NCBI RefSeq assembly: GCF_036971445.1
Contig: NC_091475.1
Coordinates: 20,646,001 to 20,710,000, forward strand
DNA: 64,000 nucleotides
From: Narcine bancroftii
Taxonomy: Eukaryota
Direction of reading: 5' to 3'
The position numbers were made by a program, and so were the translations under genes. Position 1 is the first letter of the stretch. Each line of letters begins with the position of its first letter. This document shows positions 7,496 through 64,000 of this stretch, one piece after another. The notes below the pieces were generated by a model. It searched no databases, was not told where the DNA came from, and saw only the letters and a program-made list of their open reading frames with translations.

Positions 7496-7673
7496 ATGTT
7501 GAAAATTGTCAGCAGGTCAGTACACACCTGTGGGAAGAGAACCACCTCAAGACTCTTCATTCTCGGTATCTTGCTGGTGCTCACAAGTGCCAAGGTTTAT
7601 GAGAGATGTGAGCTGGCGAGAACCTTAAAGAATTTTGGCATGGATGGATATTTTAATTACAGCCTGGCAAATT
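7496..7673 (+). CDS. lyz: Gene A exon 1 (extended leader/signal peptide + mature residues 1-27)
   Basis: ATG at 7496 in context gaaaATG; [13 protein letters not shown] motif; donor T|gtgagt at 7674. Confidence 0.93.
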
Positions 7674-10600
7674 GTGAGTATCTGCATCTATGGCAGTGGT
7701 AGTAAAAGAATCTGAGAACACTCTGGTTTATCATTGATTTCATGGCTTTTCCTCGCCGTATTGTTTATATTTTCATATTGAATCAGAATTCTACCGCATG
7801 GAAACAGGTCATTTGGTCCCAATTGTCCCTGCTGACCCAAGCTAGTCACATTTGCCTGCATTTGGCTTATGTGCCTTCAAAGCAGTGGTTTTCAAACTTT
7901 TTCTTTCCACTTACATAGCAACTTAAGTAATCTCTATGCATTAGGTGCACAGTGATTAGTAAGGGGTGACTTAAAATGGGATGTGCTTGGGGAAAAAAGG
8001 TTGAGAACCACTGCTCTACACTCAATTGTTACTGAAATATTTTGTTTCAGAAAAATTGTTATTGTCCTATTTCCTTTGGAGTTATGAAACCGTATACATA
8101 ACATAATTTAGGTACGATTAAAACAGTGTTTTTCAAGTGTTTTCTTTCCGCTCACATTCCACCTTAAGCAATCCTTTACAGAACACCTATGGCATAGGGA
8201 TTACTTAAGGTGGTATGTGAGCAGAAAGAAAACATTTGAAAACCACTGTTTTAATCACAACTAATTGACTTGTTATGTGCACGGTTTCGCAACTCAAAAG
8301 AAATGAACCAAAAATGACTATTTTTCTCAAGCAAAGTATTTCACTGACAATTGGGTCTAGAGCAGGGGTTCCCAATCTGGGGTACATGTATCCCCAGTGG
8401 TACATTTGCACTTTTCAGAGGGTACATTGGGTCTGAGAGAATAACCACTACTGTACAATACATGGTGTTGTAATCTGCAGTCAGACTGCACAATGTCGTG
8501 TTTTTTTATCCTTAATTTTTAGGGGTACATGGGAACCTATAAAAATGCCAAGGGGTACAGAGGAACAAAAAGGTTGGGAACCCTTGGTCTAGAGCAATGG
8601 TTTTCAACTTTTTTCCTCACTCACATACCAACCTTCAGTAATCCCTTACTAATCACAGTGTACCATAGCACAAGGTGGTATGTGACTGGAAAGAAAAAGT
8701 TTGAAGCCAATGTTTTAGAGTCCCCTTCCTGGACAATTAAGGAGAGCATGATTATTATCGCTCTTTATCATGATTTTATAAACCTCCATAAGATCCCTGT
8801 TAGCCTCCTATTCTCCAAGCCTATCCAGCCTCTAGTTCCAATTCACACCTACATTCTTGGGAATCTTTTCTGCACCTTTTCCAACTTAATGATATCGTTT
8901 CAATAATTGGGTGACCAGAATTGCACACAATACTTATACAGTTGCAACGTTACTTCCCTGTTTCTGTATTCAGTGCCCTGACCCACAAAGCCAGGTGTGC
9001 CAAATGCCTTTTTCACTCTCCTCTTTCCTTGTGTAAGCACCTATAAAGAACAGAGAAGGAGACTGTTTGGTCTGTTGAATTAATAATGGCTCTTAGAGCA
9101 TTCCCTTGTTCCCCATTTCCTCATTTATTCACCTGCAACCCATTTTCCTCACATGTATATCAGTCAGAGTGTTGAGTATAAAAATCAGCAAGTCACATTG
9201 CAGCTGCATTAAACTTACACAAATTCAGATTTGCGTACAATCCATACTCTGCATTACAGAGAGGCTTTAAAGAGGACACCGAATTGAGATACCAGGATGC
9301 AGGTTGGATTAGAGAATATTAGCCACACGGAGAGGCTAGATAAACTTGGGTTGTTTCCTCTGCAACGTTGGAGGCTGAGGAACAACCTGATGGTAGTATA
9401 TAAAATTATGAGAGGTGTTGATGGAGAGAGTCTCTTTCAAATACTTTACGATTTTGTTCAGAGCATCAGAGGTTATGAAAAAAAGGCTGGGCAGTGGGGT
9501 TGAGTAGGGAAAATGGATCAGCTCATGATTAAATGGTGGGGCAGACTCGATGGGCTGAATAGCCTCTTCCTTACTGCTCCTATGTCTTAAATACAGAGGG
9601 TACTGCGTTGAGGTGAGACAAGGTAAGTTTAAAGATTTATGAGACGATTTTTGTTTTGTAACAGAGAGCGGTGAGTTTCTGGAATGTGCTACCTGGGAGG
9701 TGGTGGATATGATAGCAATGTTTAAAGGGCATTTAGACAGACAAATGAACATGCAGAGACTGGAGGGATAGAGACCGTGTGCAGCAAAATCGGTGTCACA
9801 TTCATATTGTTCCTGTGCTGTACTCTTCTACGTCCCATATTCCAATGTTGCCTGGATATCCCCCTTCATTAAATGCTGCTTTTAATATCATGTGTGATTG
9901 CAAATGAACAGATAGGAGTTAAACAGTTTTATTGCTCTTATTGTAGGGGTCTGCATGGCTCACGCTGAAAGCAGTTACAACACATCTGCAATTAATCATA
10001 ACATGGCACATCATAAAATTTGGTCGACGGACTATGGCATTTTTCAAATCAACAGCAAATGGTGGTGCAAGGACCAGAAGACCAAAGGCAGTAAAAACAT
10101 ATGTATGCTTAATTGTATTGGTAAGTAAAGTAACAGAGTTTGTCATCATTTCTCTTATCAACATGTGTTTCAATACAGATAATCTCTAATATTACTCTCA
10201 GGCATTCTTCCTACCTTCCAGTTATCATTTCGCCCATACCTTGGCGAAGGGCTCAGGCACAAAATATTGGTTATCTATCTTTGCCTCCCGTGGATGCTGC
10301 GGGACCTGCTGAGTTTCGCAGGCATTTTTGTGTCCCAGATGTAAGTTGGGTGGGACCAGAAAAGTGCACACAAGAGAGAGTCAAGATAGGTGGAAATAAC
10401 TTCAGTGGGCAAAGAGCAGGTGGAAGCAATGGTCCTGCGAGGACAGTGTGGATCTCAGATAAGAGATGGAATGGGCAGGGGGAGAAGCACAGGTTCACAG
10501 TCAAGAAATAATAGGTGAATAACAGAGGGAGGGAGGGCATGAGAGAAAACAGTGGGTCGGGGGTATAGCTCTGTGAATGGAAAGAAAAGGGGTGGAGAGC

Positions 10601-13600
10601 TGGAGGAAAGGAGGCAGAGGGACAGGGGAGAATGGGGAATGGTCTAGCAGAAACTGGTGATGTCGATGTTAATCCCATCAGATTGCAGACAGAAATTTAG
10701 GAGTTGCTCTTCCAATTTACAGGTGGCTTAGGTTTGAAGAGAAACGATTCAAAACTTCTACTTATTCTTTGTAGGACTTCCCCATTGATTTATATCAACT
10801 TCCTTCTCCAGTGCTATGCAGCACGCTCACTTCCTCCGGCCATTTATTCTTTTCTCCTTCTAAATGTTGTTCCCCAATCCCACTGCCGATTTAGTTTAAA
10901 TCCTCGTGAAAATGCTTCCCATTAAGATACTTAGTTCGATTCCCGATGAGGTGAAGCTTTCACGGTGGAAATGGTGCCCCCTGTCCCAGCTCTGGCCCTC
11001 CCTCCCTTCATCACCATACTCAATTCATATGGTATTTTCCTATTTTTGTTCTTCTAAACTTGTGAAACCAGAGTAATTAAGAAACTACTGCTTCCAAGTT
11101 CCTACTTTTTTAACTTCTTCTCTTGATCAAGAGACCCTGATCGTTGAAGCAGAGTACACACCCTCCCTGTTGTTGATCGTGCCTTGGGATAACAGTCCGT
11201 AGTTAACTCCACACCAACTACTCCCCCTCTGTATCAAGTCAAGTTTATTGCCATCCCATTACATCACTGCAACCCGACCAATAGCCAGTCCTTGGTAGAA
11301 AACATGCAGACAAAGAACCAAATCCAACATACTTACAGACAAACGATACACTTGCAGTATTCATATATACAGATAATTAAATAAATATTGTTTCATTAAT
11401 ATGAGAGCCTTATATCAATGAAATCTGTATATCCTTTATACTAGGGAGACAACAGGCCATTTCTGACTCTCAATGATAATTGTAGCAACATCAATTTTGA
11501 TTAGAGTTCAGAAGAATAAGGAGTGATCTTATTGAAACCATTACGATATCTGGGGAATAGTTACAAGATTCAAGATTGGGCAGCACGGTTACAGTAGTGG
11601 TTAACACAACGCTGTTACAGCACCAGCGATTGTGACCGGGGTTCGAAACCAGAGCTATCTGTAAGGAGTTTGTACATTGTCCCCATGTCTGCATAAGTTT
11701 CCTCTGGGGGATTCCTGTTTCCTCCCATCATTCAAAACATACTGGGGTTTGTAGGTTATTTGGGTGTAATTGGGTGTTATGGGTTTGTGGGCCGAAATGG
11801 CCTGTTACCATGTTGTATGTCAAAAAATTTTAAAGTTATTTATTGTCATATAATAATACAGAAAATGTAACATTACACAAAATTACCTTCTGCCTGCCAC
11901 GAAGCGAAGACTCACCATGAGTATTACCCAGCGACCCTTACATTAAGAGAGAAAAAGAAGCAAAAGAGAGTCCCTTCAGAGTCACTGAGTGTCCGTGGAT
12001 TCAGCTCTAGCATTTCCACAGCCTCTGCAGTTGCACAGACACATGTTCGATCCATCAGCAAACCAACCTAAAGATCCAAAGCTCTGACATGATCAGAGCC
12101 GAGGCCATTTAGGAGGTGGTCATTTCACACTGAGGCATGCAGGAATTTCTTCTTGCTGAGGGAGGTGAACCTCTGGAATTCTATACCCTGGAAGGAAGGG
12201 AGGCTGGATCAATATTGGGGTACTTAAGTCAATAAATTTCTTTAAAAAATTGAAGTCTGTGGGGAATTGGCATAGAATAGCTGAGATCTGGAGCAGATCA
12301 AGTTTGTTTATTACCATGTGTACTGAGGTTCAGTGAGAAAGTTCATCTTTTAAACAGTCCAATTTGTCTACCTATGTAGAACCATAGAACCATAAAGCAT
12401 AACAGCACAGAAATGGGCCCTTCAGCCCTTCTAGTCTGCACTAAACTATTATTCAGCCCACTAAACTGTACCCAGTCCATAGTCTCCATACTCCTGGCAC
12501 CCTGTCCACATTTTTCTTAAATGTTAAAATTGAGCCCGCATTCATCACTTCAGCTGGCAGCTCATTCCACCCTCCTACCCTTCTCTGAATGAAATTGTTC
12601 CCCCTAATGTTCCTCCTAAACTTTTCCCCTTTCACCTTTAATCCGTGTTCTCCGGTTTGTATCTCACCTACCGTCAGTGGACAAAGTCTACTTGCATTTT
12701 CTCTGAACAAACCCCTCATAATTTTGTATGCTTCTGTCAAATTTCCCCTCATTCTTCTACACTCCAGGGAATAAAATCAGAACTTGTTTAAATTTTCCCT
12801 GTAACCCAGCAACATCCTAGTTAGAAGATAGATCAGCTCGATGAGTGGTGTCACAACAACAACTCAATGTTCGTAAAAATAAGGAAATGATTGGGGACTA
12901 CAGGAATTGGCGGTCTCACTCTCTCTTTATCTCTCTGTCGGTGGAAAAATTCCTGATGTACCACTTGAGCCTACATACACCGCAGCTTGTCCAATTTGTC
13001 TATATTAGGTTCATATCCTTCCACATCCTTCCTCTCCATGTATCTGACATTTGAATGTTGTATTCATACCCACCTATAGCTTTAACTTGTTCTTGTGTGT
13101 CTGTTCTCAAACGCCACTCCAACTAATCACACTATGAGTTTTCACCATGATCAGGACAGAGAGGAATAGATTTTCAATATTACAGAAAGCAAAGTATATG
13201 GAGTTAGAAAAGGGAAGTGGAGCTGAGGTTGCCTGGATATTACAGGCAACAACCCACAGAAATACTGGTGGAACTCAGCTAGTCTCACAGCGCCCATTGG
13301 AGGTAAAGATCTATTACTGACATTTCAGCCTTTTCTTCAAGATATAAGCAAAAAACAGGAAGTCATCTGAATAAAGATTCAAGAATGGCAGAGAGTGAAG
13401 TCTAGACCAACATCCAAAAGGTGTTAATTGGATATGATAAGAGATAAAAGGTGAGAAGCAGCAGGTATGACTGGCTGAATGGTTAACTCCTCATTAAGGA
13501 CAGTAATGTCCTAACTCAAAATGCTCACCAATAAATGTGGACTCAACAAAACTCCCTATTTCTTTTAAATGTCCTGACAGCATCTTGAAAACATTCAACA

Positions 13601-16600
13601 GAGTTGTTTCTCATCGCGTGTATTGAAATATAGGAAGAAGCACTGTTTTTCGTTCTACCAGGCAGGTCAACTCATATGGCAAGTAGTGCCATAAAAATAA
13701 GCAAATGAATAATCAACTAAATTAATGTTGGGAGGAGTGTAACTGTGGTCTAATTGTGCAGGGTATGGAGAAAGTATATGAACAGCAGAGTGTACAGAAA
13801 AAAGTACAGTTATAAAAATGCGAGCAAGTACATCATATTTTGTCAGTATGGGGTCCATTCAAGAGTCTGATAAAAGCAGGAAAGAAACTGTCTTTGAATC
13901 CGGAGATGCATGTTTTCCTCATGTATGGGGAAAAGAGAGGGTGGAATAAGCCCATTTCCACAGCAGGAGGCACAGACAGAGTGTGTCTGAACATATAAAT
14001 ATGATGATCCTTTATCAATCACTTGAATTAATTTGTTTATTGATTGTAACAGATCTTTTGAATGACTACCTTGAAAATGACTGCAAATGTGCGAAGATCA
14101 TAGTGAGGGAGAGCCAAGGAATGGAAGCCTGGTACGTTAAAGCCACCTTTACTTTTGTTTCAGTTACAAAGCCATTTTTCCTTAATGCATGGGAAATCGC
14201 AGAGCATTTCTGATATGAAGAGAAAGGGAATGGGCCTCTTGGCACCAGCTCCAACAACAAAGGTTCAATCCTTACCTCTGACACTGTCCGTGTACAGTTT
14301 GCATGTTCTCTCTGCGACTGAGTGGGTTGTCTCAGGTGCTCCACTTCATTTCACATTCCAAAGAGGTGCTGGTAGATTGATATGACATAGTGGATTCCCG
14401 TGAATGAAGGTGGTTGTGAATTAACTGGAAAATTGGGAATGAATGGTAGTTAGAACAGAGTCGCTGGGCTAAAGCTCCAACTGTACTAATGGACTGAGAA
14501 ACAGATTTTATGAGCATCATTGTCTTTAGGATTTGGACTGGTATACATATGGAGAGGAGATCATAGAGTGGAATTGGAAGAGATTCTGACTGTTCGTACA
14601 TCTTTGTCAAGGAACGGTGGGCATTCAGGATTAATTATTGGACAAAGTAAATAGAGTCATGGAGTCCAATGACACCACACAGACTCTTCACCCCAACTTG
14701 TTCATGCTGACCAAGTTGGCATTCGGTGCTGGTCCCATTTAAAAATTCTAAATTCACATGTATAGTCAGAGTACATTCATGACATCACATGAAACCCCAA
14801 GATTCTTTTTCCAGGGGCCAGGCAGAATTTCTACTTATCAGTAGTGTTAAAAACTGTACTCAAGAAAAGATTACATATGCAAAAGAGAGAAAAGGGAAAA
14901 CATGAAAGAAATGTAAACAAACTGACAATGCAATACTGAAAAAGAATTTGGTAATAAAAAATGTGCAAATTAAAAGACCTTAAATGAGTCTCTGATTTAC
15001 CTGTATTTGGTCCAAGTCCTTCTAAATCCTTCCTATACATATATCTGTCCAAATGTCTTTTGAAAGTTGTAATTGCTCCCTCGTTCGAGAATTGTCTACC
15101 CTGAGGAAAAGATTACAGATTTCCGATATATTGATTAGATTTTAGATTTAGATTAGATTTCAGATTTATTGTCGGACTACATATATGAAGTCCAGGCTCT
15201 GAGATAGTGATAAGATTTTTCAAAGATTGGGCTTGGAGCCCTGTAAGAAGTCATTCGATTTTTACAAGCAGAGAAAGGAAAAAAACAAACAGGAGTTTTC
15301 TCTTTTTTTGAGGAGGGGTGGGGGGGGGGAGAGAGAGAGAGAGAGTGGGGGGGGGTTGGAAGAGAGAGAAGTCAGTTCTATAGTTGCAGTTAAGACTGCA
15401 AAATGGCAAGCTGACTGGCTTGTTAAAAAACCCATTTTGAAGATGGGTTGTGAGTTCTGAGTTCAACCTGTTCAAACCTTTTGTAGTCCTTACAGAAGGA
15501 AATGGCTGGCTAGGGTGTTCCTCCTGAAATAATGGAAACAAGAGGAACTCTGTGATGACATGGAAGAAGAGGTTATCATTTGGAAAACCCATGACAGGGC
15601 AAGTTTCTTCAGCAAGACACTGAATTGACTGATTGGAGGAAATCAGTTTGTGCGTGTCTAACGAGCAACAAATATCTCTCTGAAACCAACAAGAACCTTC
15701 CTGAGAGACATTTAACTTTAAGCACCAGAGCCTGGTGAAGATTCATAAATTCTGTGCACAGTATGAGAGTTGCCTGATACTGGTGAACTTGGAGAAGTGA
15801 AAAGTGAATGATTGGACATTGAAACAGACAACTTTCCTGAATATATACACATTATATACACATGCGTTTAGAATTAGAAGGGGGTTAGGTTAGGACAAGT
15901 TAAGTTAATAGTAATAAGTTTAAGATTGATTCTGTTATTATGTTTAAAGAAAATGAAAACAATTTTTGTTTAAGTAACCATTGTCTTGGTGAATTTCTAT
16001 TGCTGCTGGGTTTTGATGTCCTCTGGGCTCATAACAAATACAGAGAGAACAAAAGAAAATCAATAAAGTGCACAAGTAAGAGTCCTTAAATGAGTCGCTG
16101 ATTGAGTTTGTCATTGAGGAGCATGATGGTGGAGGGGTAGCAGCTGTTCCTGAACCTGGTGGTGTGGATCTTGTTAGATACATGACATCACATACAACCC
16201 TGAGATTCTTTTTTCTGCAGAAACATATTGGTTGCACAAAAAACTGTATTCAAAAAGATACATCCACATGTTAACAAATAAAGAAATATAAACAAACTGT
16301 GCAATACAGAGTGAAAACAAATCAATAAAGTGCACAAATAAGAGTCATTCAATGAGTCCCTGATTGAGTATGTTGTTGAGGAGTCTGATGGTGGAGGGGG
16401 AGCAGCTGTTCCTGAACCTGGTGATGCGCATTGACTATGAGCATTCACTTTATCCATGCCCCTTGTGGCTTTACAAAGCTCTTTAAGGTTCCCTTTTAAT
16501 TCCTATGCTCCAAGGAAAAAGACAATCTATCCAACCCCTCCCTGTAACTCAAGACCTCCAGTCTTAGCAACAACCTGGTGAATCTCCCCTGCACATAATA

Positions 16601-16908
16601 TCCAGATGGAGCACCTTTACAAAGAACAATAATAAACACAGTTGGCCCATTTATTGATTTGGTTACAATAAAGTGCAATAGTGTAGACATATAATGGGCA
16701 GAAAAATCACAACAAACAGAATGAGAGGATGTGCTGGGGCAGCTCGCAAAGTGTTGCCACCCTTCGCCACTTTGGACTTCAAGTTTGTGGCCTGCCTGGT
16801 GAATTATTTTGTTATTCACTCTGCGTTTTTGTTTTTTGCAGGGTTGGCTGGGTGAAAAGGTGCAAGGGAAGAGATGTAGAGTCCTTTGTACGTGGATGTC
16901 ATTTATAA
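7496..16908 (+). CDS. lyz: Lysozyme C (c-type, GH22) gene A; join(7496..7673,9947..10120,14053..14131,16842..16908), 165 aa precursor
   Basis: Hand-spliced translation: [165 protein letters not shown]. All introns are GT-AG with phases 1/1/2 as in vertebrate LYZ. It has the 8 canonical Cys plus one extra, Glu35 (GAA 9967-9969) and Asp52 (GAC 10030-10032). Family assignment is certain; strict orthology to lyz is inferred. Confidence 0.95.
7883..8712. mobile_element. Compound palindromic hAT-type MITE array in gene A intron 1
   Basis: Three palindromic units of about 120-130 bp (cagtggttttcaa...ttga(a/g)aaccactg) at about 7883-8013, 8124-8249 and 8595-8712, separated by mutually inverted spacers. 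A related unit+spacer lies at about 56331-56583. Confidence 0.75.
8363..8586. mobile_element. hAT-Charlie-like MITE nested in the array
   Basis: TIRs CAGGGGTTCCCAA / TTGGGAACCCTTG; perfect 8-bp TSD GTCTAGAG at 8355-8362 and 8587-8594. Confidence 0.9.
9160..9830 (+). mobile_element. CR1-like LINE 3' fragment (degenerate, with a short internal insertion)
   Basis: [29 protein letters not shown] motif, matching the end of the CR1 ORF2 at 63050-63420. Confidence 0.7.
9947..10120 (+). CDS. lyz: Gene A exon 2 (174 nt, catalytic exon)
   Basis: Acceptor ttgtag|; WVCMAHAES...[15 protein letters not shown]; donor G|gtaagt at 10121. Confidence 0.96.
10230..10730. mobile_element. Penelope-like element 3' fragments in inverted arrangement
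   Basis: ccttggcgaagggctcaggc...cctgctgagttt on +; purine-rich tract and gatgtcgatgttaatcccatc on -, matching the Penelope copy at 33988-34790. Confidence 0.6.
11578..11822 (+). mobile_element. tRNA-derived V-SINE-like element
   Basis: A-box-like TAGTGGTTA, B-box GGTTCGAAACC (11640-11650), and the V-domain-like core. Confidence 0.8.
12378..12820 (-). mobile_element. CR1 LINE 3' end
   Basis: ORF 12453-12752(-) [13 protein letters not shown]...[12 protein letters not shown]; short tandem tail (agaaccat)n. Confidence 0.8.
14053..14131 (+). CDS. lyz: Gene A exon 3 (79 nt)
   Basis: Acceptor taacag|; [27 protein letters not shown]; donor TG|gtacgt. Confidence 0.94.
15190..16035 (+). mobile_element. 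Solo LTR-like element in gene A intron 3
   Basis: Ends ...ggtgaatttctattgctgctggg...ctcataACA; related to 6318-7135; flanked by pieces of a Rex1-like 3' UTR. Confidence 0.55.
16842..16908 (+). CDS. lyz: Gene A exon 4 coding part
   Basis: Strong polypyrimidine tract ending gttttttgcag|; (W)[21 protein letters not shown] then TAA. Confidence 0.94.
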
Positions 16909-29993: not shown

Positions 29994-30123
29994 ATGAAGA
30001 CTTTAGTACTTCTCAGTATCCTGATCGCAGTTTCCAGTGCCAAAATCGTTGGAAGATGTGAGCTTGTGGATATTATAAAGCACTCCAAGCTAACTAAGTT
30101 CTCTCAATACACTGTCGATGATT
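29994..30123 (+). CDS. Gene B exon 1 (130 nt coding)
   Basis: aagATG start; signal peptide; RCEL motif; donor T|gtaagt at 30124. Confidence 0.94.
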
Positions 30124-33100
30124 GTAAGTGACATCTCTTTTCTACCAAAAAGACTCTAGCATTTGTTTTATGGGTCAGTGTTTTTGGGGTGGGGGGGTGG
30201 GGCGGGGGTGATCTCGGCATCCCTGTGAAGGACTGCATTTATTCCCCATCCCAGTTATCCCTTAGGGAGCTTGTTCTGACAGAGGGAGGGATTTTTTAAA
30301 AATGTACAGCACACTAACAGGCCTATCAAGCCTACGAACCTGCTCCATTCAACTGGCCTACATACCCCCATATGTTTTGAAGGGTGGAGGGAAACCAGAG
30401 TGCCTGGAGGAAACCCATGCAGACACAGGGAAGAATGTACACAATCTTTGCAGACAGCAGTGGCGCTTTGATAGCGTTACACTAACCGCTATGGCAATTT
30501 AGTGCCCATGAAACAATTATACCTTTCCAAACCAGGGTAAGAAATTACCTGGAGGGGACTGCATTAGGAAGTGTTCCTGTCCACCTGAAGCCCTCGCCAG
30601 TCTAAGTGAGTTGGCTGGTCTGGCTCCTGTGATGTTTGGGATCTCAGGAGGAAGCCCATCATGGTTATTAGTTCTTATTCCTAACACTCACACATGTTGT
30701 GCCACATTATCACTGAGGATAAGTGCAATGCTCAATGTGCTGGTTTCAAATTTAATTTTTTTTTATGTTACAATTTAAGTTTTTTAATTTAGACATGCAG
30801 CATCGTACCGGGCTATTCCAGCCAATGAGCTCATGTACCCAATTACACCCAATTAACTTACAACCCCTGTATATTTTTGAAGGGTGGGAGGAAACCTCAA
30901 CACCTAGAGGAAACCTACACAGACACAGGGAGAATGTACAAACTCCTTAGAGACAGCTCTGGCACTGTAGTAGTGTTATGCTATTCACTACGCTAACCAT
31001 GTCATCCAAAACTTCCTCACAGCAAGTTGCCAAATTACACTTTACTGGCCTTTCCTGTAAAAACCACTCAACAACTGAATGATACAACAATATCATAGTA
31101 ATATTTCTACAAAATTTTTTATTTGAAGTAGCCTAAATTATTTCTCAACAAAGTATTTGCATGATCCTGTTTCTTTTTTCTGTTCTTTAGTGTTCAACAA
31201 GTGTTGCTTTTAATTCTAGGGGTATGTCTGGCCTACCACGAAAGTAAATACAACACAATGGAAGTGGGTCGGGACAGAAGGGATGGAAAACTATGGGCAT
31301 CCATGTATGGAATTTTCCAGATCAGTAGCAAATGGTGGTGTGATGATAACCGAACTCCTGACGCTAGAAATGGCTGTGGGATGAAATGTACTGGTAGGTG
31401 AATCAATGCAATCTTAACTTTGTACTTGGTTACCAGTTAAAATAACAAAAGGTATTCATTGCATGTTGTTAATGGAGCTTTTGTCTCAACGGAATCTCAA
31501 AGCCTTTCTGTCATCTACAAAACATAAGTTGGCAGGGTGCTGGAACACTCCCTACTTGCCCATATAAGTGCAGCTTCAACACTCAAACAGTTCAACACCA
31601 ACCATGAAAAACAATCTGTAAACTGGCAACCCATTCACCATCCCAAGAATCCAATCCCCTCTGTTTGTATCCCAGTGTATGAAAAGTCCTGCAGTTAGGA
31701 TTCAAGATTCCTTTATTATCATGTAATAGTACAAAACTTGTACTATCAATCAAAATTGTCTTCTGTCTGCTGTATAGCAGAGAAAAAGTTGCCATTATTA
31801 GGCCTGGCACCCCTTACAGAAAGAGAGGGAGAGAGAAGCAAAAGAGAGTTCCTTCAGAGTCACTGAGTGTCCATAGATTTGCCTTCAGTAGCTGCACAGA
31901 CTCTTGTTCGATCCATCGGCAACCCGAGTTCCAGATAGAAACCTCTGACATGATCAAGAAGCTTTTGGTGCCCGAGGCCCTTTGGAACCTTTATTGACCT
32001 CTGCACCCTTTCAATTCCCAGCTCCAATATTTGGTTCCCAGCCCACAGCCTGTGTGGGTCCCTCAGCCACTGAGCCCCTTGTTGGATTGCTGCTGCGGTC
32101 ACCGTTCTGCAAGGTTGTCTCCTCAGCTTCTTCTACTCCTCGAGGGTGTGTTTCTGATGCCCTGCACTGATTCGATGCTCCCCAGGGTCTGTTGTGATGT
32201 CTCTTTTAAGGAATTAAGTATCTGTATTCCCAGATCTATCCCTTTATGCCCTAGATTTCAGATTTATTGTCAGGGAACATAGATGACATCACATAACACC
32301 CTAAGATTCTTTCTCTGCAGGTGAGGCAGAATTGCCACTTATTGGTAGTGCTAAAAAAAACCGTACATAGCATACACATGTAAACAAATAAAGAACTGTG
32401 AACAGATAATGAATGTAAACAAACTGTGCAATACAAAGAGAAAGAAAAACACTCTAAAGTCCACAGGTAAGGGTCCTTAAATGTTGAGGACTCTGATGGT
32501 GGAGGGGTAACAACTGCTGTTGACACATGGTGGTTCAAGTCTTGTGGCATCTATACCTCTTTCCTGATGGCAGGAACAAGAACAGAGCATATGCTGGTTG
32601 GTGTGGATCCTTGATGATCGCTGCTGTTCTCTGATGGCAGCACTCCCTGTAGATGTTCTTAATAGTGGGGAGGGTTTTGCCTATATTGTTCTGGGCTGTG
32701 TCCACTACCTTTTACAGAGCTTTGCGCTCAAGGGTATTGGTGTCCCCAAACCAGATTGTGATTCAGCCGGTCACCATACTTTCCACCACACACCTGTAGA
32801 AATTGGCCAAGGATTTTGGTGTCATACCAAACCTGTGCAAACTCCTGAGGAAGTCGAGGTGCAAACATGCTTTCTTCATGATGTCATTTGTGTGATGGGT
32901 CCAGGAAAGATCCTCTGATCCTCAGAACTTAAATTTGCTTACCCTCTCCTCCTTTGATCCCCAATTATCGTTGGATTGTATACCTCTGGCTTTACTATTT
33001 ACTCAGGCCCTATTGTTTACTGTGACAGTCTTATCCTGGTTTTTCCTCCCAAAGAGCACACATCACAGTTGTCTGTATTAAAATTCCATCTGCCATTTCT

Positions 33101-36100
33101 CAGCCCATCTTTCAAGCTGGTCCAGATCCCCTCTGCAAGCTTTGAAAGCCTCCTCTCTGCCCACGACACCACCAATCTTTACTTCATCTTGATAATCCAA
33201 TTTACTGCATTATCATCCAGATCATTGATGTAGATGACAAATAATAATGGTTCTCTGAGACACGTCACTAGTCATGGGTCTCCAGTCAGGGTGGCAATCA
33301 TTTGCTATCACTCTCTGGCTTCTCCCGCAAAAGCCAACGTCAAATCCAATTTACCACCTCATCCTGGACACTGAGTGACTGAATCTTCTCGCCATGTGGG
33401 GCCTCATCTAAGTAATGAAAATAATAATGATAGCCTTCAGATGGGCAAAAAAGGCAGATTGATTGAAAGCACTGATTGCCCGTCCTTTTCTGCTCTCAAG
33501 CCTATAACTTTCCAAGGTTGCCCTGATATAATATTGCATTTCTTTTCTCACTGCAGATTTTCTGGGGGATTACTTGGAACCTGACATCGAGTGTGCAGCC
33601 AAAATAGTAAGCAAGGAAGGAATGGAGGCCTGGTGTGTACCTCTTACCTCTATTTATAATTGTTTGTCTTTGCAAGATGCACTGCCGTTGTTCTCATCAT
33701 TAGGACCAATATCGCAGTGAAATGAAACAAACTTGACCGTTCAGTTATGAAGTCATAGCTCAAATTCCAGCAAGGTAGTAGCTGGAGAGATATATTCAAT
33801 AAGTCATTGAAGTTATCAGACCAAGGGATATAGCAAAAGGCTTGTTGCAATAAAGACATATTATGTGATGTTTGTGCAGTGAAGAGTGAATTATTCCTCT
33901 TATTTTGGAGTGCAATATGTTGTAGAGGTGTAGAAAAGGCTAACAGGGCTAAGTAAAAGGGAGAGACATGATGCCTTGATTGTAGTAAAAACACACCGAA
34001 ATGCTGGAGAAACTCAGCTGGTCTTTTCAGCGTCCATACGAGACAAAGGTCTATTGCCGACGTTTCGGGCCTGAGCTCTTCTTCAAGGAATAATCAGAAT
34101 GAGCCAGAAGCAGGAAATCTCAGAGAGGAATCCAGACCAACAAAAGGTGTTCATTAGATATGATAAGGGATGAGGTAAGAGTTTAACATATTTGTGCGAA
34201 AGGAGATGGAAGGGAGAGACAGAGTTAGGGGAAGGCGATGGGGGAAGAAGTTGGTGATGGTGGGGTGGGTGGGGAGTTTAACGAAAGCCAGAGAAGTTGA
34301 TATTAATGCCATCTGGTTGGAGGGTGCCCAGTCGAAAGATGAGGTGTTGTTCCTCCAATTGCGAGTGGTCTCAGACTGACAGTGCATGAGACCATGGACA
34401 GACATGTCAGCAAGGGCTTGGGATGGGAAATTGGAATGGGTGGCCACTGAGAGATCCTCGCAATGGACAGAGTTGATGTGATCAACAAAGCAATGTCCCA
34501 GTCTCTCCAATCTAGAGAAGACCTCAGCTGGGGCACCAGATGCAGTAGATGACCCCTGCAGATTCACAAGTGAAACATTGCTTCACTTGGAAGGACTCTT
34601 TGCAGCTCCGAATAGTGGTGAGGGAGGAGGTGCAGGTGCGGTCACAGGGGAGGGAGGAGTGGATAAGGGAGTCATAGAGGGGGTGGCCCCTGTGGAAGTT
34701 GGAGAAAGGAGGAGAGAGGAATATTTGTCTAGTGTTGGGATCATATAGTAGGTGGTGGAAATGAAAGGCTGATGGGGTGTTAGTTATCATTTAAATTGGA
34801 ATCAGTTCTTGACAGTGAGACCCCAGCTATGGAATCAATATAGGAAATTATGGGAAGTCTCAACAGGTCAGGCACAATCTGAGAGAGAGAAAAATGAGGT
34901 TAATGGTTCGCATCAATGGTCTTTCATCAGATTGGGTAAAGTTGGAAGTAAAACAAGTTGTGCATTTCATTAAAAAGTGGTGAGGATTGAGGAAAATTAA
35001 AAGGAGAGTTTGTGGGAGAACAGTTCAGGAGGAATTGAGTTACACCTGGGGATTTGCACCAGTTCAGGGAGGAAGGCAAGGCCTCATGGACATTGAAAGA
35101 TTGTCAGATAGTGAGAGACAACTGAGATACTGGAGAAGAAGAAGTAGAAGAAAACAACTTGCGTCTGTTTCTATTCCTGTGGATGACCTGCTGAATATGT
35201 CCACCATTTCCTGTTTAGCATTTGCCTTTATTTCAAACTCTCCTGTTTTGATGCGCAGTTCATTGACGTGAGATATTATTACTTTTGCCACTGGTGCTGC
35301 CACCCTTCATCTTCTGATTTTATTCTGAATTTCCACCACCTGGAATATTTTGCTTTTGTCTGCATTCCGGATGCTATTGACGCCACTTAAAGAAGAGACA
35401 ACAAATCTGGTGAAGTGATGTCACAAAAGCGAACAGGAGCATTACATACTTATTGGAAGTTCACCACAGACCCTAGACTCTGGGTATAGTACACTTAGAA
35501 TCAATCAGGGATTTGGAGTGCAGTTGGCATCACCTTATATGTGAATTTTCTGAGGAGATAACTGGGTCATGAAATCACAGCACGTAATATGCACATAATT
35601 CTTCCATATCAGATAAAGCAGTTCACATGCTACAAACAAGCTGCTGGAGAAACTCAGCCGGTCAAGCAGCATTTGTAAGGGATAAAGAATTATGAATGTT
35701 TTGCGTCAGAACCTTTCATCAAGGCTGAGAATGTAGAGACCCCTTTGTTACTCTTGCCTCTCCCTCCCTTTGTCCATCAACTCCCTTTGTCCATCAACTC
35801 CCTTTGTCCATCAACTCCCTTTGTCCATCAACTCCCTTTGTCCATCAACTCCCTTTGTCCATCAACTCCCTTTGTCCATCAACTCCCTTTGTCCATCAAC
35901 TCCCTTTGTCCATCAACTCCCTTTGTCCATCAACTCCCTTTGTCCATCAACTCCCTTTGTCCATCAACTCCCTTTGTCCATCAACTCCCTTTGTCCATCA
36001 ACTCCCTTTGTCCATCAACTCCCTTTGTCCATCAACTCCCTTTGTCCATCAACTCCCTTTGTCCATCAACTGCCTTTGTCCATCAACTGCCTTTGTCCAT

Positions 36101-38780
36101 CAACTGCCTTTGTCCATCAACTGCCTTTGTCCATCAACTGCCTTTGTCCATCAACTGCCTTTGTCCATCACCCATCACTGGTCACACCAATCCTGCATTG
36201 GACCCTATGCAACCCATCCTACCCTGTCCTCATCTCCCCTTTACACTGTCAGTCTTGATGATAGCCCAAAACCTTGACTGTTTCATTTTTTCCCACTGAT
36301 GCTGCTCGACCCATTGAGTTCCTCCAGCGGATGTGCCGTTGCTCCAGATTCCAGTGCCTGCAGTCTTTTGTGTGTCTCTGGTATATCAATGCTCCCTGAT
36401 TACAGGGAAAAGAGCTTGTGAGGGGGTCTGGTGAAGCCAAGGAACAGTCATTTGATTCAAGGCCAAAACCATTTGCAGGATTACTTGGATAGAGAAGAGA
36501 GGCTGTAGGTGATGGAAAACTGGAGCCAAATACAAATTGCAGGAGGACTCAGGCAGCGTCCATGGAAGGATATACAGGAGATGGTTAACATTTCAGGTCA
36601 TAATTCTTCATTAGGAATAGCAAGAAAAGGGGTGAAAGGGTAGGTGGGGGGGAGAGGGAGGGAGGAGGCGGAGCACAGATTAGTAGGTTATTGGTAAATA
36701 TAGGTGGGAGAAGAAAGAAATGGGGAAAAAAGGTCAAGCAGTAGGACAGTGGTTTTCAATCTTTGTTTGTCTAAGGTCCATCTGTATTGTCCACTGGTGC
36801 AACATTTTCAAGTCAAAGGCAGCTCCATAAGAAGCACATCTTTATCCAATTTAAAGTATTTATTGAAATCTTTTAAAGGAACAAACAAAAAAATGGAAGC
36901 ACACCCTGAACATAAAAACCCCCAATCAAAATCAAAGCTCAAGCCACTTTAATGAGACCCCTGTTCCTGAAGTTTCCATATCCTTGGCTCTGACTCGTTC
37001 CAAAAGTCTATAAAGGGTTAGGTCTAAAAAAATGAGTAATTTCCAGAGGAAATGATTATCCAAATTGTGATAAGCACAAAATGAAACACTAAATTTATTG
37101 CAATTTATGAACTTCCAAATAACTACCATACTTAAACCACAGTCAGTTAGTTTATGTTTAATTTATTTCTATACTGTTGGGATGTTTCCATGATCATTAT
37201 TTGGTTGCATAGATAAGTAAACTTGTAACATATCCTACAGTCACGCAATCCCATCCAGCGTGAATCTTCAATGAAAATTTTTGCAAAAATAATTTCTATC
37301 TAATTTTAGAGGAGAAATATATCATGTGATTTACCTTATAAACAGGAGCCTTGACTGGTGAAGAACAGCAAGCAGTAAGAAGACAGAAAGCACGCTTTTC
37401 TAAATCAGTCTGAATCTGTTGTGTGTGGAGGTCTGAGAGTGTGCTGAGCTCCAAGCTGCTCATATTGAGAGATGGCCGGATGACCTCTCTACCCTCAGTG
37501 GCAGATTGTTCGCCATCCCACCCCAAGGTCACCAGGAGGAGCGAGACATTACCTCAGAACCACCCTGACCTCAGAGGGTTGGGAAGTCTCTGTGGCTCAC
37601 ATGGAACTCTGGCCCAGTGGTTGGGAATAGCTAGGCTAGGAGGTGGTAGGAGGAACGGGGAGAGGGCTGAAGAAAATGCACTCTGATAGGAGGAAGGAAA
37701 GGAAGGGGGTGGGAAGCCAGAAGAAGAAAGGTGTGAGTGACAGGCAGGTAGAGTGGGTGGGCAGGGGAAGAGAAAGAGGATTGAAGCAAGAGAGATTAGG
37801 GAAAGCAAAGGGAAGGGTGTGAATGAGAAAACAAGAGAGGGAGGTCATTAGAACTGTTGTCGATCTACTCCCTTCCATGGATTCTACCTGACCACTGAGT
37901 TCCTCTGCTATACTGTGTGCATTTGCAGCAGGATTACACACAAGTAATTGCTCCTGTGTTGAATAACTCTGGAAAATGTTTTTTCAAAATGTTTGATTCC
38001 TGAAAAAAAAGATTATAATATTTGACTCCACGCTGAACACAAAGTTAATTTCAGATTTGCTGTATCATGTAGGAAGTTGGAGAAACATTAAATTAACTTT
38101 TTTTAATTTTGCATGTTTCATCGCATAATGTTGCTGAATTAGTTCAACTGGTTGCAGCTGATTTTCATTTGTACTCGGCATCTGATGCTCTCTTGTTGGT
38201 GTCCAACAATAGTTGGCCAGCATTGATAGATTCCAGTTGCCCTGACACCGCTTTTCCACGGTGGCAATGTCCTGGTGAAATCTTTCACCAAGCTCGTCAT
38301 TGATGGCACCAAGATCAGTAGGGAAGAAGTCCAAGTGCATATGCAGAAAATGAACTTTTCAATGACATGTTGCATTCCATGATTTTGTATGCTTGAAGTA
38401 GACTTAAAATATAACAGGAAATCACAAAAAGAGGTTAAATCTAAAAAAAAAAGGTACATGATAGGAAAATGTTGAGGTGATTTTTTTTGTTATTAACAGC
38501 CCAAAATCCATAAAATACACCCAAAATTGTTCAGGAAGCAAAATCTTTGTTGTCCAGTGAATTGGAGTTTATCTTCATTAAAGGATGATAGGAATTTTGA
38601 GACCGTGTCAAGGAGTATGGGGAAAGCTAACTTCAATATCTATCAATAGTTAAGCTACTTGAAATCTTGTGAAATTTTACACCTCTTCTTACGTGTCAGA
38701 TACTTTTGCTTTACAGGAGCTCCTGGGTGGAGAACTGCAAAGGTAAATGGATTAGCTATTTCAGCTACTTTTGCTTCTGA
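29994..38780 (+). CDS. Lysozyme C-like gene B (Asp52 replaced by Met); join(29994..30123,31220..31393,33557..33632,38717..38780), 147 aa precursor
   Basis: Hand-spliced translation: MKTLVLLSILIAVSSA/KIVGRCELVDIIKHSKLTKFSQYTVDDWVCLAYHESKYNTMEVGRDRRDGKLWASMYGIFQISSKWWCDDNRTPDARNGCGMKCTDFLGDYLEPDIECAAKIVSKEGMEAWSSWVENCKGKWISYFSYFCF*. The frame is open across 4 exons with GT-AG introns, 8 Cys and a 16-aa signal peptide. Confidence 0.94.
30295..31005 (-). mobile_element. Two V-SINE-like copies in gene B intron 1 (about 30295-30495 and 30785-31005)
   Basis: Reverse-complement SINE core ggaggaaacccatgcagacacagggaagaatgtaca / gaggaaacctacacagacacagggagaatgtacaaactcc. Confidence 0.75.
31220..31393 (+). 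CDS. Gene B exon 2 (174 nt)
   Basis: Acceptor ttctag|; WVCLAYHES...ASMYGIFQISSKWWC...NGCGMKCT; donor G|gtaggt. Confidence 0.95.
32255..32990 (-). mobile_element. Rex1/Babar-like LINE 3' fragment in gene B intron 2
   Basis: Tail agatttcagatttattgtc; reverse strand matches the 24866-25244 type ORF (ttctacaggtgtgtggtggaaagt). Related UTR pieces lie at 14745-14995 and 16035-16430. Confidence 0.7.
33557..33632 (+). CDS. Gene B exon 3 (76 nt)
   Basis: Acceptor tcttttctcactgcag|; DFLGDYLEPDIECAAKIVSKEGMEAW; donor TG|gtgtgt. Confidence 0.92.
33988..34790 (-). mobile_element. Penelope-like retroelement 3' part (GIY-YIG endonuclease + terminal repeat with hammerhead-like motif)
   Basis: FQVKQCFTCESAGVIYCIWC, RLGHCFVDH, VATH...DMSVHGLMHC motifs; terminal ccttgaagaagagctcaggcccgaaacgtcgg on the - strand. 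Confidence 0.85.
34052..34092 (-). ncRNA. Minimal type-I hammerhead ribozyme-like motif (Penelope-associated)
   Basis: - strand UAUUCC-UUGAAGA-A-GAGC(UCAG)GCCC-GAAA-CGUC-GGCAAUA. It has the YUGANGA and GAAA core boxes, a stem II with one mismatch, a palindromic ACGU stem III, and a bulged stem I. Confidence 0.55.
35765..36170. repeat. 17-bp minisatellite (T[C/G]CCTTTGTCCATCAAC), about 24 units
   Basis: 18 perfect TCCC-type units (35765-36070), then 5 full and 1 partial TGCC-type units; embedded in a Penelope-derived foldback (about 35630-36375) in gene B intron 3. Confidence 0.97.
37967..38559 (-). mobile_element. Internally deleted Chapaev3/CMC-like DNA transposon
   Basis: Transposase C-terminal motif HLDFFPTDLGAINDELGERFHQDI...MLANYCW; terminus CACTGGACAACAAA (reverse complement at 38546-38559). 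A related fragment lies at about 56865-57140. Confidence 0.7.
38717..38780 (+). CDS. Gene B exon 4 coding part
   Basis: Acceptor ttttgctttacag|; (W)SSWVENCKGKWISYFSYFCF then TGA; homologous to gene C exon 4. Confidence 0.92.
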
Positions 38781-49763: not shown

Positions 49764-49893
49764 ATGAAGATTCTTGTTGCTCTCAGCTTTCTGCTGACGG
49801 TCGTCAGCGCCGAAGTCCTTTCACGATGCGAAGTCGTTAATGCCATCAAGAATTCAAAGTTGATGCAATTCTCCGAGTACACAGTGGCAGACT
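49764..49893 (+). CDS. Gene C exon 1 (130 nt coding; absent from the ORF track)
   Basis: aggATG start; signal peptide; SRCEVV; donor T|gtgagt at 49894; collinear with gene B exon 1. Confidence 0.94.
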
Positions 49894-52800
49894 GTGAGTA
49901 ACACTTCTCCTATTCTGTCTCCTGGATTGTTGCAATTAGATGGAAAGAAAAGACAATGTTTTGTTTAAATGTGACATTGTCCTGAATTGGCACTGGGTTT
50001 TATGTCTGTTTTAGGTTGCTCTTATAAGTGAGTAGAAGGATAGCTAGCTGGAAAATACAACATGTAAATAGTGGGTGGGATGGTGTGTTCAGCTTGGAGT
50101 TTGTATCCCATCTTATATTCTCCGCACGTACCCCAACTCCTGGATTCCACCACTCATCTAGGTTCTGAAGATAATCTATGGCCAAGTCATTGGGTACATT
50201 TAAGGAAAAGACTGAAAGGTACTTGCTTAGCCAGGGTTATGGAGAGAAGGCCGGGCTGTTGGGCTGTAGAAAAATGGATCAGCTCATGATGAAATGGCAG
50301 GGCAGGCACAATGGGCTGAAGAGCCTATTTCTGCTCCCTTGGCTTCTGGTCACTTGGTAAAGTAACTGAGCAATCAGCCATTTCTGGCATGTAGGAGGAA
50401 ACCAGGGCACCAGTGGCAAAGCCACTTTGTCACAGGTAGCAAGAGTGAATTCCACACAGACAGCACCTGAGCTCAAGGTTGAACCTGGGTCTCTGGAGTT
50501 GTGATGTAGTGACTACTTGTTGTTCCATCTTGTTGCCCACACTGAAGACTGTGGACCCACCAAGCAACCGAGTATGAGTAGATGTAATCTAACAGCTGAA
50601 TCTTCCAATATTTTTGGTTTCATTTTCAGATTTCTCATATCTAGTATACAATCTTTAGGAAGGGCAGGAATTGCTTTGGCCCTGATAGAGTCAACGAGCA
50701 CAGATAAAGACCATTGAGGCCACCATGTTTATGCTGACATTTGAGTCTCTGTCCATGGAATAGAATGCCATAGGTGCTCTGTGATTAGTAAGGATTTACT
50801 TAAGGATGTATCTGAGAGGAAAATAAATGGTTGACAACCATTGGTCTCTACTATTCCCATTTCCCAGCATTTGTCCTGCAGGTTTTGATGCTTTTCCGAA
50901 TTGAGTAATTGTCCGAAACTAATTGTTGAAGGCCCACAAGAAACAAACTCCAAAGAAACCCAAAGGAAGCCACCGAGCAAATGTCGGCTGTTTCAGTCCC
51001 CAGACTGATTTCATCAGTAGAGCTGAGTGTCAGTGTGTGAATGCCAATATCCTGCTTCCTGGCTGAGATCCAGCTTTTGTCATTTTGTTCCCCTTTCGCA
51101 TCTATGTTTTTACAGCAGGGTGTGAGACAGTCCACCCTCGACTTGATGCAAAGCTTACAATAACTTCCCATCTACTTCATCGCTTTGGAGGGAATCAGTA
51201 TTCCATCGCTCCCTGTTGTAGTCAACAATGTCTTTATTTAAATTCCAGGGGTGTGCATGGCTTCTCACGAGAGTAGCTATAACACGCTTGCAGTCAATTA
51301 TGAGAAGGGCAGCAATGGAAAGATCTGGTCAGGAGACTACGGAATTTTCCAGATCAACAGTAAATGGTGGTGTGTTGATACGATGTTTCCATCTGGAGCC
51401 AACGGCTGCAATACGAACTGTAACTGTAAGTAAACATTATTAATATAGGTCGTTGAAAAGTGGAGCTCAGGAGCAGGCCATTTGGCCCATGATGCCTGCG
51501 CCAAACACGATACCAAAATAAAGTCCCTGCTGCTTGCATATCAAAATCGGAACTTATCGTCATAAGCAGGTGTCACAAAATGTATGTTTTGCAGGTGCAA
51601 GAATTGCTAGAAAGTACATCTGTAAAAATAATTAATTAATGACAAAGAATAGAATAAATTGAGGTGGGGTCTGTGGTTCATTGTCCATTCAGAAATCTGA
51701 TAGTGGAGGGGAAGAAGCTGTTTTTGTACCATTGGGTGTTTATCTTCAGACTCCTCTACATCCTTCCTGACGGTAGCACTGAGAAGAGGGTATTGCCTGG
51801 ATTGTGAGGGTCCTGGATGACAGAGGCACAATCCAAGTCCCTCTGTTCCCTGTATGTTCATATGTCTATCTGGAAACATCTTAACCACTAAATTTTAGAC
51901 TACAGAGAAATGACAAGATAGAGGATCAGTGAAAGGAAATAAGAGATCAGCCATGCTAATGAAAGCCAGGACAGACACAAGGGGCTGAATGTCCTTGTCT
52001 TTCTCTTACTGCTACAGCAGCTGTAAAATGATGAGTTGATGGTGTTTCAGACAGCGTCACTTCATCTCCTTCCTTCTCCGTTACCTACTTTTTGGAGCAT
52101 TTTCATGAACATTCATGTTTTCCCACTTTCTGCAGTGAATCTGAACCTCAATATCACTTGTGCTGTTCTCTATACAACTTAGAACATTACAACACACAAC
52201 AGGCCCTTCAGTCATGATGCCTTGCTGACCCATATAAACCTACCAAACAACAACCTAATTTGTCCCTATCTCACACCCATAACCCACTGCTTTTTCTCAC
52301 ATTCATGTGCCTAATAGTCTTTGAATGTCCCTATTGTACCAGCTTCCACCACCACAACTGGCACAATTGCATTCCCTGGCAGAAAAACAAGGTACACCTT
52401 GCCACATTTTTTAATATGTGGGAATGTAGTCATTTTAAGTCCTGTGATGTGGGAGAAGGCAAGTCCATAAGCAGCAGTTCACTTTCTATCTGAGGTGCGT
52501 TCTGACACTCGGTTGGAAGAACAATGTTATTCCGAAACTTTCTCACTCATATTTGAACACAGTCAGAGGTTAGTTTATTGACTATTTTCTTGTTTCTTTC
52601 ATTCCCACAGCTTTCCTAACTTATAATGGTGACTTACAACCTTCCATCGATTGCGCTGCAATCATAGTGCAACAACAAGGAATGCAGGCCTGGTATGTAG
52701 AAACCTCCATCTACTGTCTCTCCTTTTATTTGCTTTGATTAAAATGAATTAGGATTCAATCAAATCACAAACGGAGTATCCTAAAGAGATTTAGTAAAAC

Positions 52801-63502: not shown

Positions 63503-64000
63503 GAAGCTTCATAAAAAGTATCTGATAATTTCCCAGCAGCCAGGGATTCAGAAAGATCTGAATCCAAATGAGATATCAATAAATGGTTAGAAAAAATTTT
63601 ATAAAACTCTGTTGGGAACCCATCAGGTCCAGGAACTTTGCGGGCTGCAAAGAGTTAATTATTGCAACTATATCCTCAAAAGTAATGGGTTTCTCCAGCA
63701 GTAATCTCTTCTATGAAGATAGTGAAGGAACATTTAAATTATCCAAAATTTTCATTAGAGAAGCTGAATCTTTAATTGATTCAGTAATATAGAGCTTAGA
63801 ATAATGTTGACAAAAACCTTTGTTTATCTCAACATGGTCAGTAGTAGATATGCCATCATCTTTACAGATCTCTGGTAATAAGCTGCTTAGCTGTATACTT
63901 TTGAATTTGGCTGGCTAAGAGCTTCCCAGCCTTATCTCCAAGTACATAGAATTTAGATTTACTTTTTTAAAGTTGGGTCTGTATAGAGTAAGTAAGAAGA

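Follow-up and report, generated by a model that had tools for sequence, protein, structure and literature searches.

A Narcine bancroftii c-type lysozyme with Asp46 and Met52 belongs to a candidate glycan-binding lineage of sharks and rays

Overview

Three c-type lysozyme genes, here called A, B and C, lie in tandem on the + strand within the window analysed here, a 64-kb stretch (64,000 nucleotides) of Narcine bancroftii contig NC_091475.1 (positions 20,646,001 to 20,710,000, assembly GCF_036971445.1). Gene B is an intact, spliced c-type lysozyme gene whose product has Met at the position of the catalytic nucleophile Asp52 and Asp at position 46 (residues are numbered as in hen egg white lysozyme; positions on the DNA are those of the window). 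An earlier note on this DNA took these two residues as signs of a possible natural migration of the nucleophile from 52 to 46. Because the shark and ray counterparts of B mostly lack both cutting residues, Glu35 and Asp52, B is more likely a sugar-binding protein than an enzyme with a relocated residue. A probability of roughly 0.6 is given here to the reading that the B group consists of secreted binders of N-acetylglucosamine (GlcNAc) glycans under selection, in which the acidic residue at position 46 would be a sugar contact and the C-terminal tail a second docking surface.

Gene B and the Met52 codon

The gene B product is 147 aa long with eight Cys and is identical to P0001, which is XP_069748463.1, 'lysozyme C-like [Narcine bancroftii]'. 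Its reading frame is open over four exons, the introns are all GT-AG, and exon 2, bounded by AG and GT, matches the Pfam Lys family PF00062 with an expectation (E) value of 2.8e-14 and 53.9 bits (cut-off 27). The signal peptide is placed by alignment, and the structure alignments put the mature start at residue 17. The features of gene B are as follows.

29994..30123, + strand: exon 1, with the ATG, a putative 16-residue signal peptide and helix A with Cys6
31220..31393, + strand: exon 2, with the end of helix B, the beta-hairpin with a 4-residue insertion, the YGIFQIS motif and KWWC
31240..31242, + strand: GAA, Glu35, general-acid position (codon reading)
31273..31275, + strand: GAC, Asp46 (codon reading and alignment register)
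31303..31305, + strand: ATG, Met52, nucleophile position (codon reading and spliced contigs)
31324..31326, + strand: AGT, Ser59 (codon reading)
33557..33632, + strand: exon 3, from helix C as far as Trp108, lacking one residue relative to hen near Asp101
38717..38780, + strand: exon 4 and stop, with the aromatic-rich tail coded by 38739-38777; the sequence agrees with P0001
38899 and 38941: AATAAA/ATTAAA hexamers after exon 4

In addition to Glu35, gene B keeps Gln57, Trp62 and Trp63 (within KWWC) and Trp108, and it carries Gly44 and Ala50. The earlier reading of an intact c-type lysozyme with Met52 and all eight Cys, and with the codons it named for positions 35, 46, 52 and 59, is confirmed. 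The calculated isoelectric point (pI) of the mature protein is 6.15, compared with 8.57 for A and 4.68 for C. Intron 3 contains a 17-bp tandem array (35764-36170, ~24 copies, 99% matches).

The exon 2-exon 3 junction of gene B was found in contigs of two probable RNA runs, X1 and X6, with no differing letters, and the X1 contig also links exon 1 (30057-30123) to exon 2. Both runs belong to one study and derive from samples other than that of the assembly, and their RNA nature is a guess. A contig from a DNA run, possibly the assembly's own source, spans 30933-31724, again with no differing letters; run X7 leaves exon 2 uncovered and has no bearing on expression. This check covered exons 1-3. 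Since the spliced contigs of two other samples match without differing letters, the ATG is real and gene B is spliced. An assembly error, which the earlier note had allowed for, or a decaying pseudogene might be suspected from the occurrence of Met52 in just one of 19 orthologues and from the apparently damaged paralogue beyond the window end. Such an explanation is extremely improbable given the open four-exon frame with GT-AG introns, the recurrence of the ATG in the spliced contigs of two other samples and the 56-78% identity of gene B to its 18 orthologues.

Register of Asp46

The earlier note had cautioned that the hairpin insertion could shift the register and so misplace the Asp. Outside the B and C clades, 16 of 18 distinct lysozymes of elasmobranchs carry the insertion, gene A included, and in 14 of these 16 the residue aligned with B's Asp46 is Asn. 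An AlphaFold2 model of B, built from an 86-row alignment, has a predicted local distance difference test score (pLDDT) of 92.3, with strands at 59-64 and 67-73. It superposes on hen lysozyme with Z 23.5 and a root-mean-square deviation (rmsd) of 1.1-1.2 Å over 127 residues, and Foldseek template modelling (TM) scores, by query, against hen lysozyme entries are 0.78-0.83. The rounded identity of the model is 41% to hen N46D/D52S (3ww6), 40% to D52S, N46E/D52S and D52N, and 39% to E35A; because identity to the hen mutants shifts by single-residue steps, the Asp of B falls on hen position 46 and its Glu on 35. The model thus indirectly places both residues in register with their hen counterparts, and the cautioned shift is not borne out by either the elasmobranch rows or the hen superposition.

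Catalytic positions in the shark and ray orthologues

Protein sequences of B orthologues were assembled from three database searches and a cluster look-up, giving 19 genes from 17 shark and ray species. The group has a support of 96/90, or 93/97 after removal of columns 35, 46, 52 and 59, and its subgroups track shark and ray families. Five rows were left out: P0008 (a short isoform of the P0277 gene), P0031 (no Cys30, unparsed), P0059 (insect), and P0033 and P0009 (in no set); gene A, a duplicate of P0023, was entered once in all counts.

Position 35 is Val in eight orthologues, Glu in six and Ala in five, with Val possibly overcounted by two on account of the near-identical within-species pairs P0274/P0275 and P0007/P0276. 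Position 52 is Asn in seven, Glu in five, Gln in four, Asp in two and Met in one, the last being Narcine gene B. Glu35 is therefore missing in 13/19 orthologues and Asp52 in 17/19, and the two occur together in a single protein. Among 131 mature columns, position 35 ranks 108th in conservation and position 52 ranks 123rd. The earlier note stressed that ATG shares no base with GAC at any of the three positions; the codon is as it described, but with Asn, Glu, Gln, Asp and Met all found at this position the difference loses its relevance. Position 46, by comparison, is Asp or Glu (acid-46) in 18 of the 19, and position 59 is Ser in 18. Gly44, Trp63, Trp108 and one Trp and one Tyr of the tail are invariant, and position 62 is always Trp or Tyr.

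The co-occurrence of acid-46 with a residue other than Asp52, for which a survey of sharks and rays had been suggested, is indeed found in 17/19 orthologues. However, acid-46 is also retained in all 13 orthologues without Glu35, such that five of the 18 acid-46 proteins have Glu35 and 13 do not, and the other columns are equally conserved in these 13. The combination of Glu35, acid-46 and a non-acid residue at 52 occurs only in Narcine and Cetorhinus (2/19), and three of the six Glu35-bearing orthologues have Glu52. The Hemitrygon orthologue combines acid-46 with Asp52, but has Ala35. Changes between Glu and other residues at position 35 number at least four inside the group and seven over all 35 rows, and the approximately unbiased test rejects placing all 13 Glu35-less proteins in one clade (p-AU 1.2e-42), a grouping that was chosen by residue and with earlier trees already known. 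Outside the listed elasmobranch sets, Glu35 is present in 75/75 best-scoring hits and Asp52 in 72, these being top hits and not a random sample. The change of Glu35 to Ala also recurs outside the B group, in shark paralogues P0014, P0018, P0019, P0021 and P0064, indicating that elasmobranch lysozyme clusters often lose the general acid.

The stretch from Cys115 to Cys127 contains four or five aromatic residues in 19/19 B orthologues, and likewise in 10 of 15 proteins of the gene C type, versus a single aromatic in 16/18 other elasmobranch rows and 70/74 outside hits. Hen lysozyme has polar residues at the matching positions, from which the tail aromatics of B are likely to lie at the surface.

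Origin of the acidic residue at position 46

B and the gene C-type paralogues together form a larger clade (support 100/99-100), with no bony-vertebrate member among the rows sampled. A Narcine member of the sister clade lies downstream of B in the window.

49764..54589, + strand: gene C, sister-clade paralogue serving as internal control, with Glu35 (51269-71), Glu46 (51302-04), Asp52 (51335-37) and Asn59 (51356-58)

The 15 parsed sister-clade proteins, in which a 5-residue insertion is present and position 46 was counted from Cys30, have acid-46 in 12 cases, acid-46 together with Asp52 in 11, and Ala in place of Glu35 in four. Because sister-clade proteins, gene C included, carry both residues, acid-46 is older than the loss of Asp52, and because it is common in a clade with intact Asp52 (11/15) it was not gained in exchange for that residue. 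The proposal that Asp was gained at 46 in place of the lost Asp52 is thus not supported. The neighbouring hydrogen-bond network, which the earlier note saw as having changed together, does carry the residues described, but Gly44 and Ser59 also occur in six and four proteins, respectively, with an intact Glu35/Asp52 pair; occurring beside an intact dyad, they are not diagnostic. The gene C product is strongly acidic, with three acids, Glu35, Glu46 and Asp52, around its cleft.

Comparison with known lysozymes

B shares with hen egg white lysozyme (glycoside hydrolase subfamily GH22c) the fold, the four-exon layout, the eight Cys, Glu35, Gln57, Trp62, Trp63 and Trp108. It differs in Met52, Asp46, Gly44, Ala50, Ser59, the shortened Asp101 region, the near-neutral pI and the aromatic C-terminal tail, as well as in the hairpin insertion that is general in elasmobranchs. 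The hen mutants named in the earlier note, N46D/D52S (PDB 3ww6) and N46E/D52S (PDB 3ww5; Abe et al. 2016), do exist and are reported to recover a retaining two-carboxylate mechanism. Like B of Narcine and Cetorhinus, these mutants combine Glu35 and an acid at 46 with a non-acid residue at 52; unlike B, they have an otherwise intact cleft with Asn44, Ser50, Asn59 and a small Ser52 where B has the bulky Met52, and the B clade does not conserve Glu35. The i-type lysozymes (GH22i, Glu18/Asp30) resemble B in having the second acid 11-12 residues past the general acid, and their Asp30 is presumably equivalent to hen Asn46. They constitute a separate sequence family, and leech destabilase aligns to the B model with only Z 5.9 and rmsd 3.7 Å over 89 residues.

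Across the lysozyme superfamily, the position of the general acid is equivalent throughout and that of the second acid changes; in GH22i the two are Glu18 and Asp30, respectively (PMC2976769). Because the general acid stays put, a moved nucleophile would still need Glu35. The hen-mutant study is cited elsewhere as finding that most hydrolysis does not proceed through the glycosyl adduct (PMC7919404). Chito-oligomers occupy subsites -1 to -3 of a hoatzin E35A lysozyme (PMC6887759).

A natural case of acid-46 without Asp52 is already known from the sperm protein SLLP1/SPACA3. SLLP1 chain 4yf2 has Thr35, Glu46, Asn52 and Ser59, and Varanus SPACA3 has Ala35, Glu46 and Ser52; among the B orthologues, those of Mobula and Pristis, with Ala35, Glu46, Asn52 and Ser59, match the SLLP1 pattern of a residue other than Glu at 35 followed by Glu46, Asn52 and Ser59. 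Several orthologues fit this signature, and Narcine B, with Glu35 and Met52, fits it only in part. Human SLLP1 is without lytic activity, and buffalo SLLP1 has Ala35, Glu46 and Asn52, with Glu46 hydrogen-bonding (GlcNAc)3 in docking models (PMC5104373). As in the B group, position 35 of SLLP1 varies across species (PMC5104373), whereas SLLP1 differs from B in lacking the hairpin insertion and in having Arg62. The best tree places B apart from the SPACA3-like rows, but a forced grouping is not rejected (p-AU 0.21); there are three such rows, one of them poorly trimmed, and the snake row joins at only 81/76. The shared cleft pattern may thus reflect either convergence or shared descent.

No description of the B clade was found in the open literature searched, a scope that excludes subscription journals and supplements and does not show absence from print. 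The one lysozyme in the excerpt of PMC6795676 is an active c-type enzyme of the nurse shark, and the word 'lysozyme' is absent from the main text of PMC10707392.

Proposed function and competing explanations

Across the B group the fold, the disulfide set and Trp63, Trp108 and Gln57 are kept, and the catalytic positions 35 and 52 vary freely. The A-D half of the cleft would still hold sugar chains of the chitin, peptidoglycan or glycoprotein type, with acid-46 taking over the hydrogen bonding to the sugar that the Asn46/Asp52/Asn59 network formerly provided. With the dyad no longer under selection, the Narcine protein, in which Glu35 is retained, would have at most residual cutting activity. 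The aromatic tail, with its invariant Trp and Tyr, could provide a second surface linking the glycan in the cleft to a membrane, a matrix or a partner protein, and bacterial killing in Narcine may be left to gene A, which is basic and has an intact dyad. The two leading settings would be agglutination or opsonisation of microbes, or a reproductive role as for SLLP1. A non-catalytic binding protein, which the earlier note listed as its alternative, fits better than catalysis given the presence of Glu35 in only 6/19 orthologues and the SLLP1 pattern.

Several observations weigh against this glycan-binding role. Narcine B itself has Glu35 and an in-register Asp46, the pair built into hen N46D/D52S, and Glu35 persists in six lineages of the B group. 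Leucoraja, with Glu35, is nested among Val35 skates (99/83); this may be a regain, in which case Glu35 would seem to retain some occasional importance. The sole orthologue without acid-46, that of Heptranchias (Leu46), is also alone in having Glu35, Asp52 and Asn59 together, as expected under compensation (n=1). Asp101, Asn37 and Arg114, residues of the hen cleft (a role taken from PMC5104373), are changed in B, so its sugar binding may be weak. E35A mutants, moreover, retain trace activity (PMC6887759).

It is unlikely, though conceivable, that the Narcine protein works as a retaining muramidase, with Asp46 filling the role of Asp52 as in hen N46D/D52S and the i-type enzymes, and that other lineages later lost activity. 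Asp46 is in register, and Glu35, Gln57, Trp62, Trp63 and Trp108 are retained; Glu35, Asp46 and a non-acid residue at 52 are combined in Narcine, Cetorhinus and the Rhinoraja sister-clade protein P0174, Heptranchias shows the reciprocal Leu46/Asp52, and the hen double mutants exist. However, acid-46 is kept in 13/13 orthologues unable to pair it with Glu35 and stands beside Asp52 in 11/15 sister proteins, and half of the Glu35-bearing orthologues (3/6) have Glu52, not an emptied site. SLLP1, which shares the pattern, is non-lytic (PMC5104373), and hydrolysis by the hen mutants is mostly outside the glycosyl adduct according to the citing paper (PMC7919404). Of the migration proposed in the earlier note, the register of the Asp therefore stands, whereas a conserved function in catalysis is not supported. 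Relocated catalysis would be confined to Narcine and the basking shark, Cetorhinus, and is improbable even there. A bolder version, to which little weight is likewise given, is that these Glu35-keeping lineages possess a natural c-type lysozyme cutting with Glu35/Asp46, that an ancestral Glu46 made Asp52 dispensable, and that single-base changes of codon 35 produced repeated switches between cutter and binder, including the little skate (Leucoraja) regain.

Still less probable is a weak hydrolase or transglycosylase acting on Glu35 alone, like hen D52S, with Asp46 only helping binding and with slow cutting tolerated but unselected. Narcine B does have Glu35, hen D52S bearing an oligosaccharide product (1lsy) aligns to its model with Z 23.6 and rmsd 1.1 Å over 127 residues, and the trace activity of catalytic mutants noted above (PMC6887759) is consistent with such an enzyme; it offers no function, however, for the 13 Glu35-less orthologues, whose other columns are as conserved. 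Alpha-lactalbumin has no lytic activity (PMC5104373), and its c-type fold is among the nearest to the B model (Z 18.5). It is also among the feature neighbours of B. Alpha-lactalbumin acts through a protein partner, and the B protein might by analogy act solely through such a partner, using its aromatic tail and leaving the cleft vestigial. This too is considered improbable. The tail is consistent with it, with four or five aromatics in every orthologue against one in nearly all outside hits (70/74), but the cleft is also held, with Trp63, Trp108 and Gly44 invariant, Trp or Tyr at 62 and acid-46 in 18/19. In addition, alpha-lactalbumin is a mammal-only milk protein, and B belongs to an elasmobranch-only clade among the rows sampled and lacks its calcium loop. 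Lactalbumin-type proteins have a pattern of calcium-loop aspartates; this pattern is not kept in B, and a calcium-binding role was rejected from the sequence.

Neighbouring genes and other features

Five matches to PF00062 were found in the whole genome, three in the window and two exon-2 copies past its end. The conventional member of the cluster is gene A.

7496..16908, + strand: gene A, conventional basic lysozyme with Glu35, Asn46, Asp52 and Asn59, identical to P0023, its 4-residue insertion fixing the register

At 7496-7673, gene A begins with an upstream ATG, which gives a 165-aa precursor with a basic extension ahead of the signal peptide, and a similar extension is found in four related ray proteins, P0024, P0027, P0034 and P0036 (167-170 aa). 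The fourth copy, L002 (contig positions 20715841-20716011), is closely paralogous to gene C (P0013) and has Glu35, Gln46 and Asp52. The fifth, L005 (contig positions 20729435-20729599), appears damaged, with AA for AG at the usual exon-2 acceptor and with Cys30 and Trp28 gone; its database model is P0031, of 137 aa. YEATS-family matches numbered none on the window's contig and seven on other contigs, and a link to the tetrapod LYZ-YEATS4 neighbourhood is thus not supported.

Among the rows of the trees, the divergent Chiloscyllium protein P0203, with Lys52, joins hedgehog LYZL4 at 97/85; both branches are long and the grouping may be an artefact. The end of the window (60001-64000) has a strong G-rich skew of 0.34-0.41 with open frames of more than 200 codons at 61628-62275 and 62496-63173, and is probably a repeat element.

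Significance

To our knowledge, most of the known non-catalytic c-type lysozymes are amniote proteins (alpha-lactalbumin, sperm SLLP1 and LYZL4). The B group looks like a further old lineage of this non-catalytic type, spread across sharks and rays and annotated as ordinary 'lysozyme C-like' proteins. It appears to have reached the SLLP1 cleft pattern, to have given up the general acid on four or more occasions and to have acquired a conserved aromatic tail. The importance of the finding is moderate, as the lineage is known from sequence and a structure model. Its members would provide a natural series, with Glu, Val or Ala at 35, Asp, Glu, Asn, Gln or Met at 52 and an acid at 46, for studying the passage from enzyme to binder and the capacity of position 46 to serve as a nucleophile.

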